IMG/VR virus record: IMGVR_UViG_2061766007_004243
Strand: one strand, 5' to 3'
DNA length: 8,560 nt
Source: an uncultured virus (IMG/VR IMGVR_UViG_2061766007_004243)
Lineage: Duplodnaviria; Heunggongvirae; Uroviricota; Caudoviricetes
Part shown: positions 1 through 8,560 of the stretch, piece by piece
How positions within the stretch are numbered: the first letter of the stretch is position 1
How the letters are laid out: the number at the start of each line of letters is the position of its first letter
Made by a program: the position numbers and the translations under genes
The notes under the pieces: model-generated
Seen by the model: only the letters and a program-made list of their open reading frames with translations
The model's database searches: none
What the model was told of the DNA's origin: nothing

Positions 1-214
1 AAAAATGACATTGCGTCCCCTTTCCGCGGGGCAATACCGGGGACGGTTTGTGCGAAAAGCATTCGGATAGAGAGCAACAATATCTGGGACGGTTCCGCCG
101 GTTGGCAGGGAAGACGTTACCGTGTGAGACACTGTCTAAAAAGAAAAAGCTTCGATATAGAGCATTACGCAAGCATATTCATTTGGCACGGTAACAAATG
201 CCTATATATGTGCT

Positions 215-250
215 GGAAAAGTGTCACGGAATGGGCGCGGAAAAAGGCTT
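215..250 (+). repeat. Intergenic repeat copy 1 (core only)
   Basis: GGAAAAGTGTCACGGAATGGGCGCGGAAAAAGGCTT; invariant 15-mer at 223-237; lacks the upstream arm seen in copies 2 and 4-8. Confidence 0.95.
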
Positions 251-312
251 ATGTGAATCGTTTCACGAAGTAAATCTTTCTGAGAAATCCTTGAGAAAGG
301 CAGGATGAAAGA

Positions 313-1467
313 ATGGGACTTTTTTTCACAAACTTACACGTCCTGAAAACCGAAAAAATCAGTCGTGCAACGCTCCTGAAAGAGCTATGCTGTATCATGA
401 AAGAGCAAGGTTATTGTCCAACAGAAAACGGCACACCAGACGCGACATTCTATATAAGCGATCCGAACAGCAAATGGATAAGCGTTTGCAGTGATCTGTA
501 TGAATCCTTCGACGAGGATCTTTACAAAAAACTGTGTTTGCCGCTTGCAAACAGACTGAACACTCCGCTGATGCTGATCAGCTGCTTTGACAGTGATTTT
601 ACATATTTTACCCTGATCGATGCGCAGAATAATCTGGAGTCCTGGGCGAGGGCGGGCGAAGATTACTGGTCTGATCAGGAGGAGACATACAAGGCCGAAG
701 ACTGGAAAAACATCATCGAAGACCCGGTCGCTTTTGAAGCTGCGCTTAGAAAAGAACGTGTTTTCTCGGAAGAATCAATTGGAGAAATCGAACCTCTGCT
801 TGGGATGGCTAAGGGACAGGGCTTTTTTATGCTTGATACGTCGGACGAAATGCCCGGTACAGAGAAGATCTGCTTTTCTTTGACGGAACAACCAGCCGGG
901 CCGGAGCCACCGAGGTTGCAAACGGTTCAACCCAGCCTTAGCCGCTGCAGGATGGGCGAAAGAATCAACATCGTCAGCGCAATCAATCTGGGCGGCGCTT
1001 CCACGGGTTTAGGCATCGCTTTTGTTGGAAACTATGTTGAAAAAGACGAGATCCGTTTTGAGGATGTAAGCCTTGAATACGATCTCGATGATCCCGGCGG
1101 GCGAAAAACCATTCCTGTTGCCCTCACCAAGCGGCAAGCAAAAGACGGAAACCATATATACTATGCCGAAGTCCCTGATTTCCGGATTCCCGAAAAGGTA
1201 AACCCAAAACTGAGCGGGTCGAAACGACAAAAGGAAGATTTTCGAAAGCAGTTCCTCGTTCGCTTTACACCCGTCGGCAATGCACGTAAACTGCTCGATA
1301 TCTGCGTGGTGCTGTTTCCGCTTGAAAACCCGTCTGGACAATGCTCATGGTGTGTCTGGCATCATTTTGGCTCTAAACAAGCGTATATAGAGGAATGTAA
1401 TGATTGCTGGAATCTGTTTCCTGGAGCCCAGTTAAAACCGCTGGATCCGGATGACTACGATCTGTAA
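313..1467 (+). CDS. Hypothetical protein, 384 aa, no signal peptide
   Basis: Long ORF with purine-rich RBS (AAGGCAGGA) upstream; N-terminal MGLFFTNLHV...WISVCSD...LISCFDSD pattern recalls a conserved uncharacterised family; acidic N-half, proline linker, second domain. Confidence 0.85.
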   Translation: MGLFFTNLHVLKTEKISRATLLKELCCIMKEQGYCPTENGTPDATFYISDPNSKWISVCSDLYESFDEDLYKKLCLPLANRLNTPLMLISCFDSDFTYFTLIDAQNNLESWARAGEDYWSDQEETYKAEDWKNIIEDPVAFEAALRKERVFSEESIGEIEPLLGMAKGQGFFMLDTSDEMPGTEKICFSLTEQPAGPEPPRLQTVQPSLSRCRMGERINIVSAINLGGASTGLGIAFVGNYVEKDEIRFEDVSLEYDLDDPGGRKTIPVALTKRQAKDGNHIYYAEVPDFRIPEKVNPKLSGSKRQKEDFRKQFLVRFTPVGNARKLLDICVVLFPLENPSGQCSWCVWHHFGSKQAYIEECNDCWNLFPGAQLKPLDPDDYDL

Positions 1468-1492
1468 CCTAATTACAGGAAGAGGGGTAGGT

Positions 1493-2041
1493 ATGCATTC
1501 TCATAAAAAATGGCTGGTGATTGGTTGCATAGCAATAGTTTGCTTGCTTTTAGCGGGAGTGTTTTTCTGGTTTCAGTATAGATCATCATTAACGCTTACT
1601 GTTCAGGCGACGCTTTATGTGCCGTCCGATGACGCCTACTATATACGAGAATATAACGGATATAGGCCTTATCGGATTTCACCAAACCAGACTGCAAGTA
1701 TTTTATATGACTTGGATCTTCACAAAGCTAAATTCAAACAGAATACATTGACTACGGTTTTTGATCACGGCCCGTATTCAATTGAAGGATCTTTTTCATC
1801 GTCTGAGCTTCAAGCACATTGGGAAAACATCCCGCTTGAAGGAGACTGGCCGTTCTGCATCAGTTTGTATAACACCAGCAGTGGGCGAAGATTTCAAGCC
1901 TATATGGATTTGGAGTTATTCACTGACAAGACTCAGGCTAAAGCAACATTGTACATTTTCTATGAGCACAAAGCGCATCCTGAAATACTGCATTGGGAAG
2001 GAATCATTGGAGAGGAAATCACTTTTTTGTGCGAGCTGTAA
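1493..2041 (+). CDS. Membrane-anchored hypothetical protein, 182 aa
   Basis: ATG 1493 follows AGGAAGAGGGG and is preferred over ATG 1451, which overlaps the previous gene; KKW plus hydrophobic LVIGCIAIVCLLLAGVFFWF anchor. Confidence 0.8.
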   Translation: MHSHKKWLVIGCIAIVCLLLAGVFFWFQYRSSLTLTVQATLYVPSDDAYYIREYNGYRPYRISPNQTASILYDLDLHKAKFKQNTLTTVFDHGPYSIEGSFSSSELQAHWENIPLEGDWPFCISLYNTSSGRRFQAYMDLELFTDKTQAKATLYIFYEHKAHPEILHWEGIIGEEITFLCEL

Positions 2042-2068
2042 CGTGATGCTATCTCTTCTTCCCTGCAA

Positions 2069-2135
2069 AATACGAGGCAAAGCGGAGAAGCAGATGGGCC
2101 GGAAAAGTGTCACGGAATGGGCGCGGAAAAGGGCT
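2069..2135 (+). repeat. Intergenic repeat copy 2 (left arm + core)
   Basis: AATACGAGGCAAAGCGGAGAAGCAGATGGGCCGGAAAAGTGTCACGGAATGGGCGCGGAAAAGGGCT; 15-mer at 2109-2123. Confidence 0.95.
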
Positions 2136-2177
2136 AATAGACTAAATCATTAAGGTGCACTACCAAGGAGAGAAGGC

Positions 2178-2364
2178 ATGGATAATAATGATAATAAAGG
2201 AAAAACAAAATGTAAGATAAGACGAATAATCATATGCACGGTCTTCGTGGTGCTGGCCATATTGCTGTATATGCAAATTAGCTATGAGCTGGGTGGTTTC
2301 TATCTTGGTCCTAAAATCAAAGGAACTGTTATGCTGCGCACCGAAGCAGGGGACATAGTATACG
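2178..2364 (+). CDS. Membrane-anchored hypothetical protein, N-terminal part only (cut by gap)
   Basis: AAGGAG RBS at 2165-2170; basic N-terminus then IIICTVFVVLAILLYM; runs into Ns at 2365. Confidence 0.75.
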
Positions 2365-2381
2365 NNNNNNNNNNCCCATAT

Positions 2382-2411
2382 AAGTGTCACGGAATGGGCG
2401 GGGAAAAGGGC
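2382..2411 (+). repeat. Intergenic repeat copy 3 (core; left arm hidden by gap)
   Basis: AAGTGTCACGGAATGGGCGGGGAAAAGGGC; 15-mer at 2386-2400. Confidence 0.93.
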
Positions 2412-2450
2412 ATAAATTGTGTAAAAATCGTTTTGATGAGGGTGCATCAG

Positions 2451-3167
2451 ATGAAATGGATAGCGGTGTTGCTGGTTGTCGTTTTCACAGTTACATTTTG
2501 CTCGGTCGACGCGGAAGGGGGAGCACCCATTAAAATGGAATTCAGCGAGATGCTTCGTGAAAGGATCGTGGAAATCCTGAAAACCTGGAAGGTAAAGGAT
2601 CAATACGCGATCATGTTTTTCATTTATCCCAATGAATGCAATGAATATGGTGGTTATACCAACATTCCTGAGTTTACTATGCTTTATAAATGTGAAAGCG
2701 ACCTGCCTTCCCAATGTGATCCCTCGTCCGGATCCTCCGACTACGACGAGGAGAGATGGAATCCGGCGTTCTGGTGGGGACTCAACGAGGAGGAAAACGT
2801 TATTGCGTTTAATGAGATCAATCCGATTGCCGACGCACTGATCGACTGGTATCATTCCAGTGGTGTACAGGATATCGGAACCGAGGGCACAGGACATAAT
2901 TATGACAGTGGCATGCGATACGTTGGAAAAGGGCCAAACGGCTTGCCGGAATTGCTGGAACTTGTCACCGAAATAGCGCGGGAGCTTCAAACGGACGGCA
3001 CGATTGAAGCCAAATTTGGAAAGAAAATTCCCATCATTCTCGCAGACTTTGAATTCACATGGTATATGGTAGCGGCTACAGTCAAAGCAAATGCGCACGG
3101 TGAAGCAGATGAATACATTGAAATGTGCTTGCGCGAAGGCTGGGTATATGAAGACCAAATCCGTTGA
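2451..3167 (+). CDS. Hypothetical protein, 238 aa, predicted signal peptide
   Basis: GAGGGTG RBS before ATG 2451; MKWIAVLLVVVFTVTFCSVDA signal-like; acidic body with EERWNPAFW and FGKKIPIILADFE motifs resembling a conserved hypothetical family. Confidence 0.8.
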   Translation: MKWIAVLLVVVFTVTFCSVDAEGGAPIKMEFSEMLRERIVEILKTWKVKDQYAIMFFIYPNECNEYGGYTNIPEFTMLYKCESDLPSQCDPSSGSSDYDEERWNPAFWWGLNEEENVIAFNEINPIADALIDWYHSSGVQDIGTEGTGHNYDSGMRYVGKGPNGLPELLELVTEIARELQTDGTIEAKFGKKIPIILADFEFTWYMVAATVKANAHGEADEYIEMCLREGWVYEDQIR

Positions 3168-3207
3168 GATTTGTCGTGAACCTCTTGGAGTGTCCGGATG
3201 AAGCGCT

Positions 3208-3335
3208 TCCTTTTCCGGCGCAATACGAGGCGAAGGAGAGGAGCAGATGGGCCGGAAAAGTGTCACGGAATGGGCGCGGAAAAGGGCTTGTATAGTGTAA
3301 TTGCCACCATCTCCGTTTTCCCGCGCAGGGCGAGG
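3208..3335 (+). repeat. Intergenic repeat copy 4 (left arm + core + right arm)
   Basis: 15-mer at 3262-3276; right arm CCGTTTTCCCGCGCAGGGCGA at 3313-3333; perfect 10-bp inverted repeat 3210-3219/3251-3260. Confidence 0.95.
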
Positions 3336-3367
3336 CAGAGATAATTCAAAAGAAAGGAAATTAAGCT

Positions 3368-3972
3368 ATGGCGCAGTCCCCAGAGTGGGCTAAGATGCAG
3401 GCTGAATTGAAAGCGTCTGTGATTCCGGAGCTTCGCAAAGCAGGATTCAAAGGGACTTTTCCCCATTTCCAAAGATTGCGGGATGGCAAAGTCGAACTCA
3501 TTTCCTTTATGGCACATAATACAATTGGGGGTGCCTTTGAGGTTGGCGCCTCGGTCATATTTATTGATGTTGCAGAAGAACAACAATCAAATTGGTTCAG
3601 CCCGAAAACAAAAACAGACATTCATAAGCTTACATGGTGCCATGGAAGGATTAGAAATGGATTGCCTGGTATGTATGAAGAAGCTTTTTTCTATGCAGAC
3701 ACTTATGTCAGACACTTTGAGTGGATAGAACCAGGTACTCAAAAGCGCCACAAAGGAAGCTATTACACAGCATTGACAGAAAAATACAAAAACACCTCCG
3801 CTCTCAGTCAGTTAATCGCTAATGGATTCGAACTGGTTCAAAAAGCAGATGACGGGATCTATACTCGTATTGCAGCCGAAGTAAACAAGCAGATGCAAGA
3901 TCTGCTGATTTGGTTTGACAGTATAAAAAGCTTTGATGATCTGAGAGTATTTCAAGAGCAACAGATAACAAA
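3368..3972 (+). CDS. DUF4304-like protein (C-terminus cut by gap)
   Basis: AGAAAGGAAA RBS; LKASVIPELRKAGFKGTFPHFQR...VELISF...GGAFEV matches my recollection of the DUF4304 N-terminal signature; not HMM-verified. Confidence 0.7.
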
Positions 3973-3983
3973 NNNNNNNNNNC

Positions 3984-4067
3984 AGTAGCAACCGCTTTCA
4001 GAGAAGAACATATGAAAGTTGTGTGCCAATAGACGAGAGGATACGAATAGATGTCGAATTCTATTAG
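3984..4067 (+). CDS. C-terminal 27 codons of a hypothetical protein, paralog of the gene ending at 6619
   Basis: Reads SSNRFQRRTYESCVPIDERIRIDVEFY*; 23/27 aa identical to 6536-6619. Missed by the ORF track because it begins in a gap. Confidence 0.8.
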   Translation, partial: SSNRFQRRTYESCVPIDERIRIDVEFY

Positions 4068-4097
4068 GTATGGTCTCGCTACTCCTCTTTCCACTGC

Positions 4098-4164
4098 AAC
4101 ACGGTGCGAAGGGAAGGTGCAGTTAACCCGGAAAAGTGTCACGGAATGGGCGCGGAAATGGGTT
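4098..4164 (+). repeat. Intergenic repeat copy 5 (left arm + core)
   Basis: 15-mer at 4138-4152; followed by RBS-like GGGAAGGGA just before the gap at 4226. Confidence 0.93.
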
Positions 4165-4679
4165 GAATAGTGGGTGCATTTGGCTTGAAAACCATTCGAG
4201 AAACAATTCAATTTTGGGAAGGGATNNNNNNNNNNNNNNNNNNNNNNNNNNNNNNNNNNNNNNNNNNNNNNNNNNNNNNNNNNNNNNNNNNNNNNNNNNN
4301 NNNNNNNNNNNNNNNNNNNNNNNNNNNNNNNNNNNNNNNNNNNNNNNNNNNNNNNNNNNNNNNNNNNNNNNNNNNNNNNNNNNNNNNNNNNNNNNNNNNN
4401 NNNNNNNNNNNNNNNNNNNNNNNNNNNNNNNNNNNNNNNNNNNNNNNNNNNNNNNNNNNNNNNNNNNNNNNNNNNNNNNNNNNNNNNNNNNNNNNNNNNN
4501 NNNNNNNNNNNNNNNNNNNNNNNNNNNNNNNNNNNNNNNNNNNNNNNNNNNNNNNNNNNNNNNNNNNNNNNNNNNNNNNNNNNNNNNNNNNNNNNNNNNN
4601 NNNNNNNNNNNNNNNNNNNNNNNNNNNNNNNNNNNNNNNNNNNNNNNNNNNNNNNNNNNNNNNNNNNNNNNNNNNNNNG

Positions 4680-5129
4680 TCCAAAATGTATTCGTCCCAC
4701 GGAGACAAATCCCAGACAATGAAATCCTCGGCCTGCGGCCCCACGGCCATGGCAGACATTGTAGCGACGCTAATTGACCCGGCTGTTGCACCGCCCGACC
4801 TGGCTGACAAAGCCATGGCCTGGGGCGATCGGTCATACAGCAGCGGCACAAACTGGAGCTTCTTCCCGCACATCGCTAACGAGTACGGTTTCTCCAAGTA
4901 TGTGAAAACCACATCGCTCCCAACGCTCAAAGCGTGCCTTGACTCTGGTGGCTACGCTGTCGCATCCATGGGCAAAGGCTACTGGACTTCGGGTGGGCAT
5001 TACATATGCGTCTGGAAGTACGATGGCGATTATATCTATGCCAATGACCCGGCATCTTCGAAACGAACGAAACAAAAGATAACGGATTTCAATAAGGAGC
5101 GTAAGGCGCTCTTTTGTTTTTGGGGGTAA
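4680..5129 (+). CDS. Peptidase C39-like domain protein (putative phage cell-wall hydrolase), N-terminus in gap
   Basis: Papain-fold C39-like motifs SACGPTAMA (Cys), WTSGGHYI (His), ANDPAS (Asp); stop overlaps the holin start (TAATG). Confidence 0.85.
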   Translation, partial: SKMYSSHGDKSQTMKSSACGPTAMADIVATLIDPAVAPPDLADKAMAWGDRSYSSGTNWSFFPHIANEYGFSKYVKTTSLPTLKACLDSGGYAVASMGKGYWTSGGHYICVWKYDGDYIYANDPASSKRTKQKITDFNKERKALFCFWG

Positions 5130-5292
5130 TGACTATGAGGAACTTTTCAATCGACATCATCTGGGCGAAGATCCAGACCGCGTTCACCGCGCTCGGTGCC
5201 TGGCTGGGGCTATTCCTCGGAGGTGTAGACGGACTGCTCTACGCGCTCATCATTTTCGCCGTGATCGATTATATCACCGGCGTGATGGTGGC
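5129..5292 (+). CDS. Phage holin family protein (toxin secretion/phage lysis holin type), cut by gap
   Basis: ALGAWLGLFLGGVDGLLYALIIFAVIDYITGVMV is typical of Firmicute Phage_holin_4_1 proteins; ATG at 5129 or 5135. Confidence 0.88.
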
Positions 5293-5324
5293 NNNNNNNN
5301 NNTTAACGGAAAGGAAACACGGTT

Positions 5325-6074
5325 ATGAAAAGAATAGCTGCTTTATTGCTCACAATAATCATCGGTTTTGGTTTGATGGCGTTTGGAGAGGAAGATAGCT
5401 TGATAGGAGTATGGAAAATAAATAAATATGTGAATAACTCACAGATTCTTCCGCGTTCAAGTATTTCTTCCGGATCAAGCCTCTTTGAATTTACATCTGA
5501 GGGTACGATTCTGCACCATGGAAGTGTCACATGGCACTACGACAGCACTGAAGATATGATACTCATATCGCCATATTCACTTTTCTCACTTTTGGATTTT
5601 ATTCTTCCATCGGATCGGGAACCGGCACAGTGCGATTACAGGATTTACGAAGGCAGACTCATTATCAAAGGATATTTGGCATCAAATAGATGGCAGCTGT
5701 TTGATAAGATAACAGGAACGGAAGGTTTGGTTGGTATATGGAAATTTGCCGGTTTTTTCGACGAGGAGGAGCTTCCGGCTTTTTTGAACGATCCGGAGAG
5801 TTACGAATCGACAGAAACTTCTTTCGCCGATGCTTTAAGCTACACATTGGAATTCACGGCAACAGGAAAAATGGTTGACACAATGACATACGAGTTAATC
5901 AGATATAAAGCAGTTGACGGAAACACGATCATGCTGATAAATGAAAACGGCGAGCCGACAGATATAGTGCTTAACTTCCATTTTGAGAAGGGACGGCTAG
6001 TTTTAAGCATGATTGACGAACCCGATAACGGGGAGAAATCCACGGTACAGCTGTTTCTCAAACGGGTTGAATAA
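5325..6074 (+). CDS. Secreted protein with two lipocalin-like (GxW) repeats, 249 aa
   Basis: GAAAGGAA RBS; signal peptide MKRIAALLLTIIIGFGLMAFG; LIGVWKI..FEFTSEG..EGRLII repeated as LVGIWKF..LEFTATG..KGRLVL. Confidence 0.75.
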   Translation: MKRIAALLLTIIIGFGLMAFGEEDSLIGVWKINKYVNNSQILPRSSISSGSSLFEFTSEGTILHHGSVTWHYDSTEDMILISPYSLFSLLDFILPSDREPAQCDYRIYEGRLIIKGYLASNRWQLFDKITGTEGLVGIWKFAGFFDEEELPAFLNDPESYESTETSFADALSYTLEFTATGKMVDTMTYELIRYKAVDGNTIMLINENGEPTDIVLNFHFEKGRLVLSMIDEPDNGEKSTVQLFLKRVE

Positions 6075-6107
6075 CCATCCGCTTTCAAATCTGCTCCAAA
6101 CCCGAGT

Positions 6108-6175
6108 AATATGAAGCGAAGGTGAGGGGCAGCTGAGCCTGATAAGTGTCACGGAATGGGCGCGGAAAAGGGCTT
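6108..6175 (+). repeat. Intergenic repeat copy 6 (left arm + core)
   Basis: 15-mer at 6148-6162. Confidence 0.95.
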
Positions 6176-6205
6176 ATATGCAGGCTTGTCATAATGGAGG
6201 AAACC

Positions 6206-6289
6206 GTGAATTACTACGGAAGTCAGGAACACATCGACAGTCTCAAAGATTATGAAAAACGTTTATTCTCAAAGTGTACATTTGATACT
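6206..6289 (+). CDS. Hypothetical protein, first 28 codons (cut by gap)
   Basis: GGAGG at 6196-6200, GTG at 6206, open frame MNYYGSQEHIDSLKDYEKRLFSKCTFDT up to the Ns. Confidence 0.6.
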
Positions 6290-6300
6290 NNNNNNNNNNC

Positions 6301-6378
6301 GTAGCCATTCTTGCCGTTTCCTGTCTCACAATACAAACTGTACTAACGGTAACAGGAGAAATAACAATTCTGAGTGCA
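6301..6378 (+). CDS. Gene fragment between two gaps (end of a hydrophobic anchor plus beta-strand)
   Basis: Open frame VAILAVSCLTIQTVLTVTGEITILSA; possibly the N-terminal part of the gene ending at 6619. Confidence 0.45.
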
Positions 6379-6391
6379 GNNNNNNNNNNGT

Positions 6392-6619
6392 GGTTATGGT
6401 TGGTACGAATGGACTGTAGGTTCCGAAGATGTGCCGATAGATATTTATCTGTTCAATAAAAATGATTGGCAAACAACTCGTTTAGATCTGACCGTTACGC
6501 AGAATGATTATGAATGGTTAATTACAGGCAAGATTAGCAGCAACCGCTTTCAGAGAAGAACATATGAAAGCCGTGTGCCGATTAATGAGATGATACGAAT
6601 AAGCGTTGAATTCTATTAG
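6392..6619 (+). CDS. Hypothetical protein, C-terminal part
   Basis: Open frame GYGWYEW...RISVEFY*; supported by the paralog at 3984-4067, with several synonymous differences. Confidence 0.8.
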   Translation, partial: GYGWYEWTVGSEDVPIDIYLFNKNDWQTTRLDLTVTQNDYEWLITGKISSNRFQRRTYESRVPINEMIRISVEFY

Positions 6620-6644
6620 TAGCGTTCTCTCCCTGTTTCTATAT

Positions 6645-6753
6645 AATATGATGCAAATAGAAGAGGCAGCTGGCCCGGAAAAGCGTCACGGAATGGGCGC
6701 GGAAAGTGGCTTATAGTGTAAAACCACCCTCTCCGTTTTCCCGCGCAGGGCGA
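6645..6753 (+). repeat. Intergenic repeat copy 7 (left arm + core + right arm)
   Basis: 15-mer at 6685-6699; right arm CCGTTTTCCCGCGCAGGGCGA at 6733-6753. Confidence 0.95.
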
Positions 6754-6802
6754 AAGAGAAAGGCAAAGATCACCTAATAAAACCTACAAGGGGAATTACA
6801 AC

Positions 6803-7351
6803 ATGGGAAAAAGACGTCTGTTTGTAGTTTTCATTCTGCTATGCTGTGCATTATGCTCCTGTACATTAAGGGAAAAAAGGATCAGCGAGGAGGAGTTGAT
6901 CACCGCATTCAACAACAATTATGAGCAATTGAATCAATGCGCGGAGATCCTTTATTCAAATGCTGATCCATGGAAGACAACGATACGCGAAGAACGAAAA
7001 TATAACTGGGAATTGGATCTTAATGAAGATTACACTCAGATATTTGGTAAGGAAAATTGGCTTATCGTTAAAGCAACAATAGACAAGTTCAAACCAGCAA
7101 GCGTAGCTTATTATGTGCATACAATCCGTGATTTTGATTTACCGAGAGTAGAATTCTCTTTCATTAGCAGCGATTCAAAGCCAAGTGAGAAATACTGGAA
7201 GATGTATGTACTTTATTACATTCCGACAGCGCATCCGATCGAAGACGACAAATATGAGTACATCAAAGAACTCTTTGCAGAGGGAGGAGTAAACAACTTG
7301 ATCAGACTGGATGATGACTGGTATTATTCGATTCATGAAGAGAATTGGTAG
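6803..7351 (+). CDS. Putative lipoprotein, 182 aa
   Basis: AAGGGGA RBS; MGKRR, hydrophobic stretch, lipobox-like LCSC (Cys20). Confidence 0.8.
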   Translation: MGKRRLFVVFILLCCALCSCTLREKRISEEELITAFNNNYEQLNQCAEILYSNADPWKTTIREERKYNWELDLNEDYTQIFGKENWLIVKATIDKFKPASVAYYVHTIRDFDLPRVEFSFISSDSKPSEKYWKMYVLYYIPTAHPIEDDKYEYIKELFAEGGVNNLIRLDDDWYYSIHEENW

Positions 7352-7420
7352 TTTTCTGTATACTCTCCTCTATTGACTTGAAACAAGGACTGAAAACTGT
7401 TTAGCTACAAACAAACATCT

Positions 7421-7540
7421 TCCCGTTTTCCCGCGCAGGGCGAGGTGAGGAGCAGATGGGCCGGAAAGTGTCACGGAATGGGCGCGGGAAAAGGTTATAA
7501 GGTTACAGCCACCCTCTCCGTTTTCCCGCGCAGGGCGAGG
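7421..7540 (+). repeat. Intergenic repeat copy 8 (arm + core + identical arm)
   Basis: 15-mer at 7470-7484; CCGTTTTCCCGCGCAGGGCGA at both 7423-7443 and 7518-7538; RBS-like AGAAGGAAAG follows before the gap. Confidence 0.95.
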
Positions 7541-8191: not shown

Positions 8192-8560
8192 AAGCCTGAA
8201 GAGTACGTTTTCCACGATCCCCAGGGCAATCCGCTGTCGCAGGCGACATTCAAGCGTATGTGGTGCAGGCTGATGGCGGACGCGCGGTGCGCGACGGTGC
8301 GGGACTACGACCCACATGCCGAGAAGAACTGGGACATCCTGAAACAGGTCAAGCCTACGCTGACTCCGCACTTTTTGAGGCACAATTATGTGACGCTCCT
8401 GTACGAAGCAGGCGTTGATCCTTTGATCGCGATGAAGATCGTAGGCCACACGGACTACAAGACCACGGCGAATATCTACACCCACGTCCGTGACGAGATG
8501 CTGAAGAAGGCGACGGTGAATATGGGTGAAGTGTTTGGGAGCAGGGAGAAGGGAGGATGA
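8192..8560 (+). pseudogene. Tyrosine recombinase (phage integrase family), C-terminal fragment
   Basis: EYVFHDPQGNPLS, TPHFLRH (HxxR), VGH and NIYTH (catalytic Tyr); in-frame TGA at 8189-8191 and only 86 nt back to the previous gene, so the N-terminal domains and first catalytic Arg are absent. Confidence 0.88.

Follow-up and report, generated by a model that had tools for sequence, protein, structure and literature searches.

We analysed a stretch of 8,560 nt (the window) from an uncultured virus assigned to the Caudoviricetes (IMG/VR record IMGVR_UViG_2061766007_004243). In this stretch, co-oriented genes are separated by copies of a short repeated site, here termed the core, and the gene units in between, the cassettes, recur in rumen sequences with changing neighbours. 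The core contains the 15-mer GTCACGGAATGGGCG, which matches the window exactly eight times, always on the + strand, with starts at 223, 2109, 2386, 3262, 4138, 6148, 6685, and 7470. This confirms the count and the coordinates of the initial annotation, which had been made from the sequence alone. By chance, 0.01 copies are expected; none of 200 shuffled sequences reached eight, and no additional copy was found in the window when up to two mismatches were allowed. All eight copies are intergenic, as had been claimed, and the neighbouring open reading frames (ORFs) lie on the + strand in the same orientation. The distance from a stop codon to the following core is 66–119 nt, where readable, in line with the 60–120 nt initially given for both sides, whereas the distance from the core end to the next start codon (32–104 nt) has a somewhat wider range. 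The repeat is larger than the 15-mer: repeat family D2 aligns over 43 nt in all eight copies and family D1 over 77 nt in six of them. With nhmmer, the copies were delimited as follows:

206..250, + strand, core copy 1 (50.3 bits)
2090..2135, + strand, core copy 2 (56.1 bits), with a purine-rich module upstream (D1)
2376..2412, + strand, core copy 3 (36.1 bits), left part lost in the 10-N gap 2365–2374
3243..3289, + strand, core copy 4 (57.5 bits)
4119..4164, + strand, core copy 5 (50.3 bits)
6129..6175, + strand, core copy 6 (49.3 bits)
6666..6712, + strand, core copy 7 (51.5 bits)
7452..7496, + strand, core copy 8 (41.2 bits)

In copy 8, the first A-run is shorter by one base and the second repeat has one additional G. 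The left flank of copy 1 (182–222) is an alternative module, class B, which is also present at L028, L032, L057, and other loci (L numbers denote loci in the sequences compared). A second repeated module of about 25–45 nt and of the TTTTCCCGCGC type, named M, has four copies in the window (repeat family D4):

3291..3335, + strand, module M, 3' of core copy 4
6711..6755, + strand, module M, 3' of core copy 7
7401..7445, + strand, module M, 5' of core copy 8
7496..7540, + strand, module M, 3' of core copy 8

Neither strand of the window, nor the array at L030, gave a match to the families of Rfam 15 at E up to 1.

The scaffold was checked by aligning contigs of four public ruminant-gut runs to the window (runs X1, X3, and X4 are named below). 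The genes, including two parts that these contigs join, are the following:

313..1467, + strand, cassette gene, 384 aa, no family (ORF and family search)
1493..2041, + strand, 182 aa, shares its unit with 313..1467 as the second gene; hydrophobic segment at the N-terminus, no family reaching the threshold
2178..2364, + strand, cassette gene, 5' part only, continued by the 3' part at 6390–6619 (public-run contigs)
2451..3167, + strand, cassette gene, 238 aa, no family (ORF and family search)
3368..3973, + strand, cassette gene with a DUF4304 domain (E 1.6e-6, 28.5 bits against a cut-off of 23.2), cut by a 10-N gap
3984..4067, + strand, 3' end of a paralogue (86% identical) of the gene ending at 6619 (repeat family D6)
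4680..5129, + strand, C-terminal part of a Peptidase_C39_2 protein (E 2.8e-10)
5135..5292, + strand, N-terminal part of a phage holin (Phage_holin_4_1, family search), gap-cut
5325..6074, + strand, cassette gene, 249 aa, no family, with an N-terminal signal-like segment (X1 contig 5303–6171)
6390..6619, + strand, 3' part of the cassette gene starting at 2178 (public-run contigs)
6803..7351, + strand, cassette gene, 182 aa, no family, with a lipoprotein-like N-terminus (X1 contig 6725–7536)
7854..8105, + strand, 83-aa ORF between gaps, with weak HEAT-repeat matches below cut-off
8192..8560, + strand, C-terminal 121 residues of a phage-type tyrosine integrase (8192–8554 is 98% identical to the integrase at L028)

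For the 384-aa and 238-aa cassette proteins, searches of Pfam, NCBIfam, and a protein atlas returned only unnamed clusters and one weak DUF4303 lead (0.82). A 383-aa gene at L028 (8907–10055, genome G001) holds the same place behind a class-B junction as the gene at 313–1467; the likeness is positional only. The 3' part of the gene at 1493–2041 is 90% identical to L065, and the cassette of 2451–3167 recurs at L053 and L069 behind other neighbours. The product of 4680–5129 can be read as a phage endolysin-type enzyme and the segment as a prophage piece put inside the scaffold; its counterpart at L028, which carries PG_binding_1, matches endolysin PHROGs. The window ends at the integrase stop codon, and the loose contig ends at 8193 mean that the gene continues upstream.

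Units 223–2123, 2386–3276, and 6685–7484 are free of any N, as the initial annotation had pointed out. Core-to-core contigs of the public runs span 220–2118, 3260–3952, and 6725–7536, and the first and last of these independently match two of the three N-free units. The joint 2364→6390, with 18 letters between, was present in three runs (X1, X3, and X4). Hence, the gene starting at 2178 ends at 6619. In one X1 contig, 3972 continues at 2093, so that core copy 2 follows the DUF4304 cassette; one X1 contig extends the DUF4304 gene 30 nt into the core at 2093–2123. A further joint in one X1 contig leads from 7491 over 21 letters to 8432 in the 3' part of the integrase gene, and public-run contigs also join 6534 and 3983, contrary to the N-joins of the window. 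As the contig joints contradict the N-joins, the apparent units 2109–2386 and 6148–6685 are scaffold artefacts. The cassette structure is real, while the cassette order shown in the window is wrong and belongs to a mis-ordered scaffold. Summed contig depth was about 20 over the cassettes, 130–220 in the bins holding cores, and 438 over 8295–8560. The core and the integrase 3' end are thus many times commoner in the sample than any single cassette.

Across 136 unique junctions from all sources, the conserved block measures about 38 nt, from -10 to +27 relative to the start of the 15-mer, so the core of about 35 bp first proposed was borne out at a slightly larger size. Near-invariance reaches from about -10 to +20 and fades out by about -26 and +38; a weaker, pyrimidine-rich module lies near -55 to -43. 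The almost invariant joining site is CCGGAAAAGTGTCACGGAATGGGCGCGGAAAAGGGCTT. It is built of two direct repeats of the ATGGGC(C/GC)GGAAAAG type (ATGGGCCGGAAAAG and ATGGGCGCGGAAAAG) around TGTCACGGA and holds three CGGAA motifs spaced by 11–13 nt, with a TATA-rich hexamer after the core. Module M repeats the GCGCGGAAAA part of the core in inverted orientation, often about 50 nt off on either side. It was found upstream (-53 to -45) in 51 of 117 junctions and downstream (+49 to +64) in 29; both sides carry it in 15 junctions and neither side in 52, compared with 2 of 1200 shuffled flanks.

As stated in the initial annotation, the ends typical of integron attC sites are absent: neither RYYYAAC nor the pair RYYYAAC...GTTRRRY occurs in any of 124 junctions. 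A folded attC-like site was also rejected, the RNAalifold consensus being only -1.35 kcal/mol with no compensatory pairs. The 3' part of the core pairs only modestly better with the upstream module than shuffled sequences do, with at least seven complementary bases in 23% of the 124 junctions and in 4% of the shuffled ones. The pairing of module M with the core reaches 86.9%, measured on sequences picked for having M. A sigma-70 promoter inside each core was discarded, as the core regions of the window have no site at the scan threshold.

A short ORF (MGRKSVTEWARK...) runs from an ATG, GTG, or TTG at -15 behind a Shine-Dalgarno (SD)-like purine run, for example at 3247–3300 of the window, and often stops at the TAA of TATAGTGTAA. 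It may be a translation aid for the next gene or a product of chance. A leader peptide was rejected: the -15 start codon is present in only 49 of 119 junctions, the stops vary, and frame-shifting indels are tolerated.

When one genome per species was searched with an exact 21-mer of the site, only two Clostridia bacterium metagenome-assembled genomes (MAGs), from goat abomasum and sheep rumen, were found. One, G001, has three arrays on three contigs and the other, G002, has one array; all are co-oriented. Other hits to a 13-mer with one mismatch were no commoner in G001 and G002 than those of a reversed-pattern control. In a family sample of 401 genomes, several copies occurred only in these two; one further genome has a single copy with one mismatch, and three have single hits with two mismatches, compared with eight control hits. 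A 19-mer scan of metagenome contigs gave 90 stretches (loci L033–L106), and the site is present in about 70 rumen metagenome contigs. The core copies come from goat, sheep, and cattle samples. The viral contig collection had no match to the 21-mer or the 19-mer. Two 20-nt matches within a DUF2499-family gene on unrelated freshwater-type metagenome contigs (L083:192–211 and L090:8000–8019) were rejected as chance matches. They were left out of the core-site nhmmer, module M, attC, short-ORF, and flank-type counts and are still among the 138 junctions used for the conservation profile and the flank linkage.

All 38 sources with at least two cores carry them on one strand. Single copies beside housekeeping genes, a scatter of the kind known from repetitive extragenic palindromic (REP), BOX, or miniature inverted-repeat transposable (MITE) elements, were not found above the control rate; in G001 and G002, copies exceed the control only in the four arrays, so the scatter of singles in both orientations considered at the outset was not found. 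The contigs of 43–100 kb in the two separately assembled MAGs hold two to four cores with host genes on both sides. Most of the metagenome contigs are short, and many end at a core.

To follow the neighbours of each cassette, every junction pair was compared in its far flanks (-150 to -65 and +45 to +130), with a flank counted as shared at 80% identity or more. Only the upstream flank was shared by 20 pairs, only the downstream flank by 38, and both flanks by two. Junction pairs are not independent; therefore, we also counted by flank type, for which both flanks were readable in 114 of the 136 junctions. Among the flank types recurring at least twice, 14 of 15 upstream types and 18 of 19 downstream types have at least two different partners. 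A 245-aa cassette may serve as an example: its left neighbour is the integrase head in G001, a leucine-rich repeat (LRR) cassette in G002, and a third sequence at L057, and its right neighbours in these three places differ as well. The sequence stays linked to the upstream cassette as far as about -12 and to the downstream cassette from about +17 to +21 onward, while positions -15, -11, -1, +13, and +15 are poorly linked to either side. The cassettes change partners, with the exchange point within about -12 to +20 of the site. The unique-to-unique distance across a core is about 35–60 nt, under one sequencing read, so reads should span the core. The initial annotation had asked whether copies cluster in arrays of differing order and content; they do, co-oriented in 38 of 38 sources and with the switch inside the core, and an identical gene order across strains was not encountered.

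At L028 (G001), tail genes, an endolysin gene (PG_binding_1 + Peptidase_C39_2), an HTH_17-like gene (12367–12774), and the gene of a 374-aa tyrosine integrase (11240–12361, - strand) lie upstream of the array in the same orientation. The integrase gene is followed by a terminator hairpin and a promoter (TTGAAA-17 nt-TATAAT), and the first core stands about 8 nt past the -10 element. Heads of this kind (integrase 3' fragment, terminator, and promoter) were found at 18 places, some inside arrays, after 10 unrelated sequences had been subtracted from 28 motif matches. Five of the 18 heads run directly into a core, 11 into a diverged core-like leader, and two are intermediate. The diverged leader (about 75 nt behind the promoter; L029:16580–16700, L030:11087–11200, L032 on the - strand, and eight others) is about 60% identical to the core in its second half. 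It seems to stay outside the exchange and is often followed by an "empty cassette," that is, a 5' module joined directly to a 3' module. The two head promoters at L030 match the consensus in 11 and 10 of 12 positions, have an extended TG, and stand right after terminator-like hairpins, all of which are consensus matches only. The window has no promoter-like site with at least 10 of 12 positions (8 sites against 11.8 expected by chance), and its core regions have no terminator-like sites.

The ten integrase fragments all begin 0–52 nt upstream of the codons GGCCACACGGAC. Fragments inside arrays are present at L030 (10022–10138 and 10878–11015) and at L091, L094, and L075. The last 130–180 nt or so of the integrase gene, with terminator and promoter, form a high-copy unit (L030:10022–10222 and 10878–11099; window 8295–8560). 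The fragment starts sit just before the codons GTGGGCCACACGGAC, which are loosely core-like, a likeness seen after the fact. The initial annotation had called for an intact recombinase consistently adjacent to the arrays. This was borne out in part: an integrase gene or its 3' remnant, with the promoter, heads the arrays, and often only the remnant is there.

The far end of the array is formed by a terminal element of about 130 nt that is common to 11 other loci and adjoins a tRNA-Arg(ACG) gene, complete at L032 and L049 and reduced to its 3' half at L028. The terminal element regions are:

L028:8576–8830, - strand
L032:7866–8690
L049:1746–2512

At L074, the terminal element abuts an integrase fragment, as if two arrays stood in tandem.

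All 797 matches of the integrase to phage records are below 60% identity; the listed matches have 25–30% identity and are mostly to Streptococcus and Staphylococcus phages. Integron-integrase models scored far below their cut-offs (TIGR02249, 60 bits against 265; NF011946, 28.5 against 435), as did the NCBIfam XerD model (71.7 bits against 329.6). For the integrase relatives, the best PHROG is the phrog_1 integrase. Two relatives with 65–66% identity stand at the ends of predicted viral contigs, in one case (L129) with tail, endolysin, and holin genes ahead of the integrase relative. The integrase 3' end or the head was matched in 41 of 301 genomes of the G001 family. Full-length homologues (59–67% identity) lie 0.3–3.2 kb from tRNA-Pro or tRNA-Thr genes in the ten regions taken; no repeated intergenic element was found in the eight of these regions scanned for one, and the core had no match better than E = 4 in the ten scanned. 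At L123, whose integrase is 63% identical, about 120 nt over the integrase 3' end are repeated some 2 kb away with 74% identity, beside a tRNA-Pro gene:

L123:8308–8428 and 10305–10426, integrase 3'-end repeat

In this integrase family, duplication of the 3' end may be a general trait.

We then considered the cargo. The 61 complete core-to-core units are 277–2654 nt long (median 804). Of these units, 58 have no long N-runs, and in 56 of the 58 the longest ORF points the same way as the cores. Clustering of the 58 cassette proteins at 80% identity gave 48 clusters, and by homology they form 45 groups, in agreement with the early description of the genes as co-oriented and mostly unrelated. The median GC content of the units is 0.432 (n = 59) and that of the arrays 0.416–0.475; flanking host DNA and integrase have 0.56–0.60, the integrase itself 0.586. 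Pfam families were assigned to 11 of the 48 clusters, and seven of these 11 are among or near immunity families. The families are Imm-NTF2-2, Imm33, SUFU, DMP19, DUF1963 (twice), DUF4304 (twice), UPF0167, WG repeats (twice), BspA-type LRR (LRR_5; three times), ADP-ribosylglycohydrolase, a BlaI/BlaR1 pair, PBP_like_2, DUF5412, and a radical-SAM protein. By these assignments, several cargo families are likely immunity-type proteins of polymorphic toxin systems. Imm-NTF2-2, LRR, and SuFu are named as such in a published survey (PMC3482391). Further immunity-type families were found in array-flank ORFs. The remaining families of this kind we take to belong to the same immunity class.

Two genes of the toxin side were also seen behind cores. 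At L074 (1–3573, - strand), the gene for an RHS-repeat protein that carries CBM96 and DUF6531 domains starts about 160 nt behind a core; the protein has at least 1191 aa and extends past the contig end. At L094 (7026–7592, - strand), a 189-aa RHS fragment and a following small ORF stand behind another core. The system thus includes toxin modules as well.

Known systems offer several points of comparison. Integrons consist of an integrase gene (IntI), the attI site, the promoter Pc, and cassettes with attC sites that are variable in sequence with conserved ends, and the integrase gene is divergent from the array. Like them, the array has promoterless, mostly single-gene, co-oriented cassettes of 0.5–1 kb with unrelated cargo, a recombinase gene and a predicted outward promoter at the head reading into the cassettes, a conserved site most of whose sequence travels with the 3' end of the upstream cassette, and an order that varies between carriers. 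Unlike them, it has no IntI, no attC motif, and no supported hairpin; the integrase gene is on the same strand as the array and upstream of it; the site is nearly invariant; and the last cassette has no trailing site. The array is not an integron. Streptococci have a further type, in which cis-mobilizable elements (CIMEs), which are integrase-less and flanked by att sites, accrete beside integrative and conjugative elements (ICEs). The tandem units between direct site repeats beside an integrase-bearing element, with possible mobilisation in cis, resemble such an accretion, whereas the many single-gene units behind a promoter and a repeated site that is not the tRNA attachment site do not.

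The closest published layout is that of the recombinase-associated immunity arrays of Bacteroidales, rAID-1 (recombinase-associated acquired interbacterial defence; Ross et al. 2019, 10.1101/471110; PMC12247911), which, as described there, have a 5' tyrosine recombinase gene, co-directional short genes, low-GC cargo, and repeated intergenic motifs. There, the criterion is a 5' XerD-like recombinase at least 44% identical to the enzyme of B. fragilis 9343; recombinase relatives are reported only from Bacteroidales, the cargo is dominated by orphan immunity genes and has a GC of 41% or lower, and the way in which the arrays are assembled is stated as still open. Measured against this description, the present arrays agree in the tyrosine recombinase gene at the 5' end with at least two co-directional short genes downstream, in the presence of conserved repetitive intergenic motifs, in a cargo GC below that of the recombinase (median 0.432 vs. 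0.586, the 41% cut-off belonging to another phylum), and in a cargo that includes polymorphic-toxin immunity families. They differ in the host, which is of the Clostridia and not the Bacteroidales, in the Gram-positive phage-type integrase beside lysis and tail genes in place of a XerD-like enzyme, and in the location inside a prophage end beside tRNA-Arg. Beyond what is given there for rAID-1, the cassette boundaries and the neighbour swapping are here mapped to one site of about 38 nt.

Zhang et al. (2012, PMC3482391) describe polyimmunity loci as tandem, co-oriented, strain-variable immunity genes, some beside XerC/D-type recombinases, with firmicutes included. The arrays share with them the tandem same-strand genes of unrelated families, immunity types among them, and the variability, most of the cargo here being unassigned; a defined inter-gene site, a head promoter, and a prophage location set the arrays apart from these loci as described. 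Our literature search (subscription journals not covered) found no such arrays described for Clostridia or Bacillota. The interpretation in the initial annotation, a recombination-site-delimited cassette system not recognised as described in Clostridia-like bacteria, is thus supported in part. The architecture as such has already been published, with rAID-1 and the recombinase-adjacent polyimmunity loci, so that the arrays are no undescribed kind; the phylum, the recombinase type, and the prophage setting differ from rAID-1.

The reading around which we arranged these results is that the window represents, in scrambled scaffold order, a mobile-cassette array of the integron/rAID type, in which a tyrosine recombinase carries out the exchange within the core and the head promoter provides the expression; we consider the chances of this to be about even. 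For the core itself, we infer site-specific recombination. The array would lie in the cargo region of a prophage that integrates at tRNA-Arg(ACG) in uncultured rumen Clostridia, between the integrase gene and the attachment end. Its units would be promoterless, low-GC, usually single-gene cassettes joined at the near-invariant site. Their exchange would be site-specific and the work of a tyrosine recombinase, for which the adjacent phage integrase is the simplest candidate. The head of about 240 nt, with its length kept within about 50 nt in 10 fragments, may serve as the complex partner, similar to attI/attP, for the simple sites of the cassettes, with module M and the direct repeats as candidate additional binding sites. 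From the head promoter, the cassettes are predicted to be transcribed as one message, and a lysogen would gain a changeable set of immunity genes that is able to travel with the phage. A phage-borne form of cassette capture, in which the arm-binding integrase of a temperate Clostridia phage inserts and excises cassettes at the site of about 30 nt while sets of immunity and toxin genes are expressed in lysogens and moved by transduction, seems doubtful to us; if true, the integron principle would have been invented a second time, convergently, in Gram-positive bacteria.

Several observations speak against a mobile-cassette array with recombinase-driven exchange. The junctions are known from assembled short-read contigs only, among which chimeric ones are possible, and the scaffold of the window itself is wrong. 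The arrays on contigs C42 and C50 of G001 and the array of G002 have integrase remnants only, and the last cassette of an array lacks a trailing core. From its relatives, the integrase looks like a member of an ordinary tRNA-targeting prophage family, and the relatives examined have no arrays. The array is peculiar to a narrow lineage, where it occupies the cargo region from the integrase gene to the attachment end. The conservation of the core tapers on both sides, with no sharp edges. Read from the sequence, the core has no dyad symmetry beyond GTGTCAC, unlike simple tyrosine-recombinase sites, and covariation for a folded attC-like site was absent in four hand-drawn helices, none of which was above shuffles. 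Positions -15 and -11 are linked only at 0.5–0.6 to otherwise near-identical upstream cassettes, which fits a variable crossover or conversion tracts, and the exchange point is not narrowable to a few bases. Finally, 37 of the 48 cassette clusters have no family, so that "immunity" is shown for a minority only.

In the main rival reading, the core would be a cis-acting expression element, such as a leader, an intercistronic element, or an operator or activator site on the CGGAA repeats, shared by toxin and immunity genes. The shuffling would then come from RecA-type recombination and gene conversion, which would also keep the repeats uniform. We regard this as possible, with the balance tilted against it. 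It would accommodate the position of the site a few bases behind the -10 element in two different promoter contexts, which places it probably at the transcript 5' end, and the 11 of 18 heads with a diverged, non-shuffling form of the leader. The direct repeats at 11–13 nt spacing with the TATA-rich hexamer after the core, the last array gene with a core before and none after it, and the RHS toxin gene likewise preceded by a core are consistent with it too, as are the tapering conservation with the partly unlinked positions -15 and -11 (as from conversion tracts), the short ORF at -15 behind an SD-like purine run in 49 of 119 junctions, and the integrase relatives without arrays. That ORF, however, occurs in fewer than half of the junctions and without a constant reading frame, and a stretch of about 30 nt that does not vary across over 130 copies (goat, sheep, and cattle samples) is far tighter than usual operators or RNA motifs. 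The lack of covariation, of a stable consensus fold (-1.35 kcal/mol), and of an Rfam match argues in the same direction, as does the lack of copies outside arrays above the control rate. Moreover, a stretch of 38 identical nt generally serves homologous recombination poorly, yet a new neighbour stands beside a cassette at nearly every recurrence.

If the arrays instead were the remains of accretion and deletion after repeated integrations of tRNA-Arg prophages or integrase-less elements, no dedicated cassette capture would be needed; what remained of each event would be an att-like core, a moron gene, and an integrase 3' fragment plus promoter. This accounts for the integrase 3' fragments recurring within arrays (L030, L091, L094, and L075), for the depth of 438 over the integrase 3' end in the source run compared with about 20 for the cassettes, for the terminal element of about 130 nt beside tRNA-Arg at 11 other loci and abutting an integrase fragment at L074, and for the relative at L123, which also has its integrase 3' end duplicated beside a tRNA gene. 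We consider it improbable nonetheless: most units are single genes of 0.5–1.4 kb between cores and contain no phage remnant, the 10 integrase fragments all have their left ends within a stretch of 52 nt, unlike random deletions, and decay leaves the swapping of neighbours with a switch inside the core unexplained. Still far less probable, in our estimate close to negligible, is that arrays and shuffling are assembly artefacts of a dispersed short repeat. The scaffold of the window is indeed mis-ordered at repeats, the Logan contigs break at every core, and the metagenome contigs are mostly short, many ending at a core. Against this stand the three gap-free units of the window, two of them matched by core-to-core contigs of public runs, the 43–100 kb contigs of two separately assembled MAGs with two to four cores and host genes on both sides, a unique-to-unique distance of about 35–60 nt, which is less than a sequencing read, and, once more, the absence of copies outside arrays above the control rate.

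As a Gram-positive counterpart to rAID-1, the arrays offer a sharply defined site of about 38 nt, many examples of the same cassette in different places, and a clear candidate enzyme; the mechanism is therefore directly testable. Should a temperate phage carry the array along, its lysogens would acquire a changeable protection against the toxins of neighbouring cells, which would matter for the competition among strains in the rumen. An expression element, if that is what the site proves to be, would be unusual in its invariance and would mark an entire toxin/immunity regulon.

Some further genes were noted in and near the arrays. At L030 (12753–14840), the BlaI/BlaR1-type repressor/sensor pair occupies one core-to-core unit with its own sigma-70-like promoter (11 of 12 consensus positions). 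A small Sigma70_r2 protein is encoded at L094 (3324–3725, - strand), first behind a head whose core-like site has two mismatches, and is followed by an unassigned 420-aa protein and trypsin-like peptidases. At L028 (14338–15510), an IS110-family transposase gene lies between the prophage lysin gene and the tail genes.

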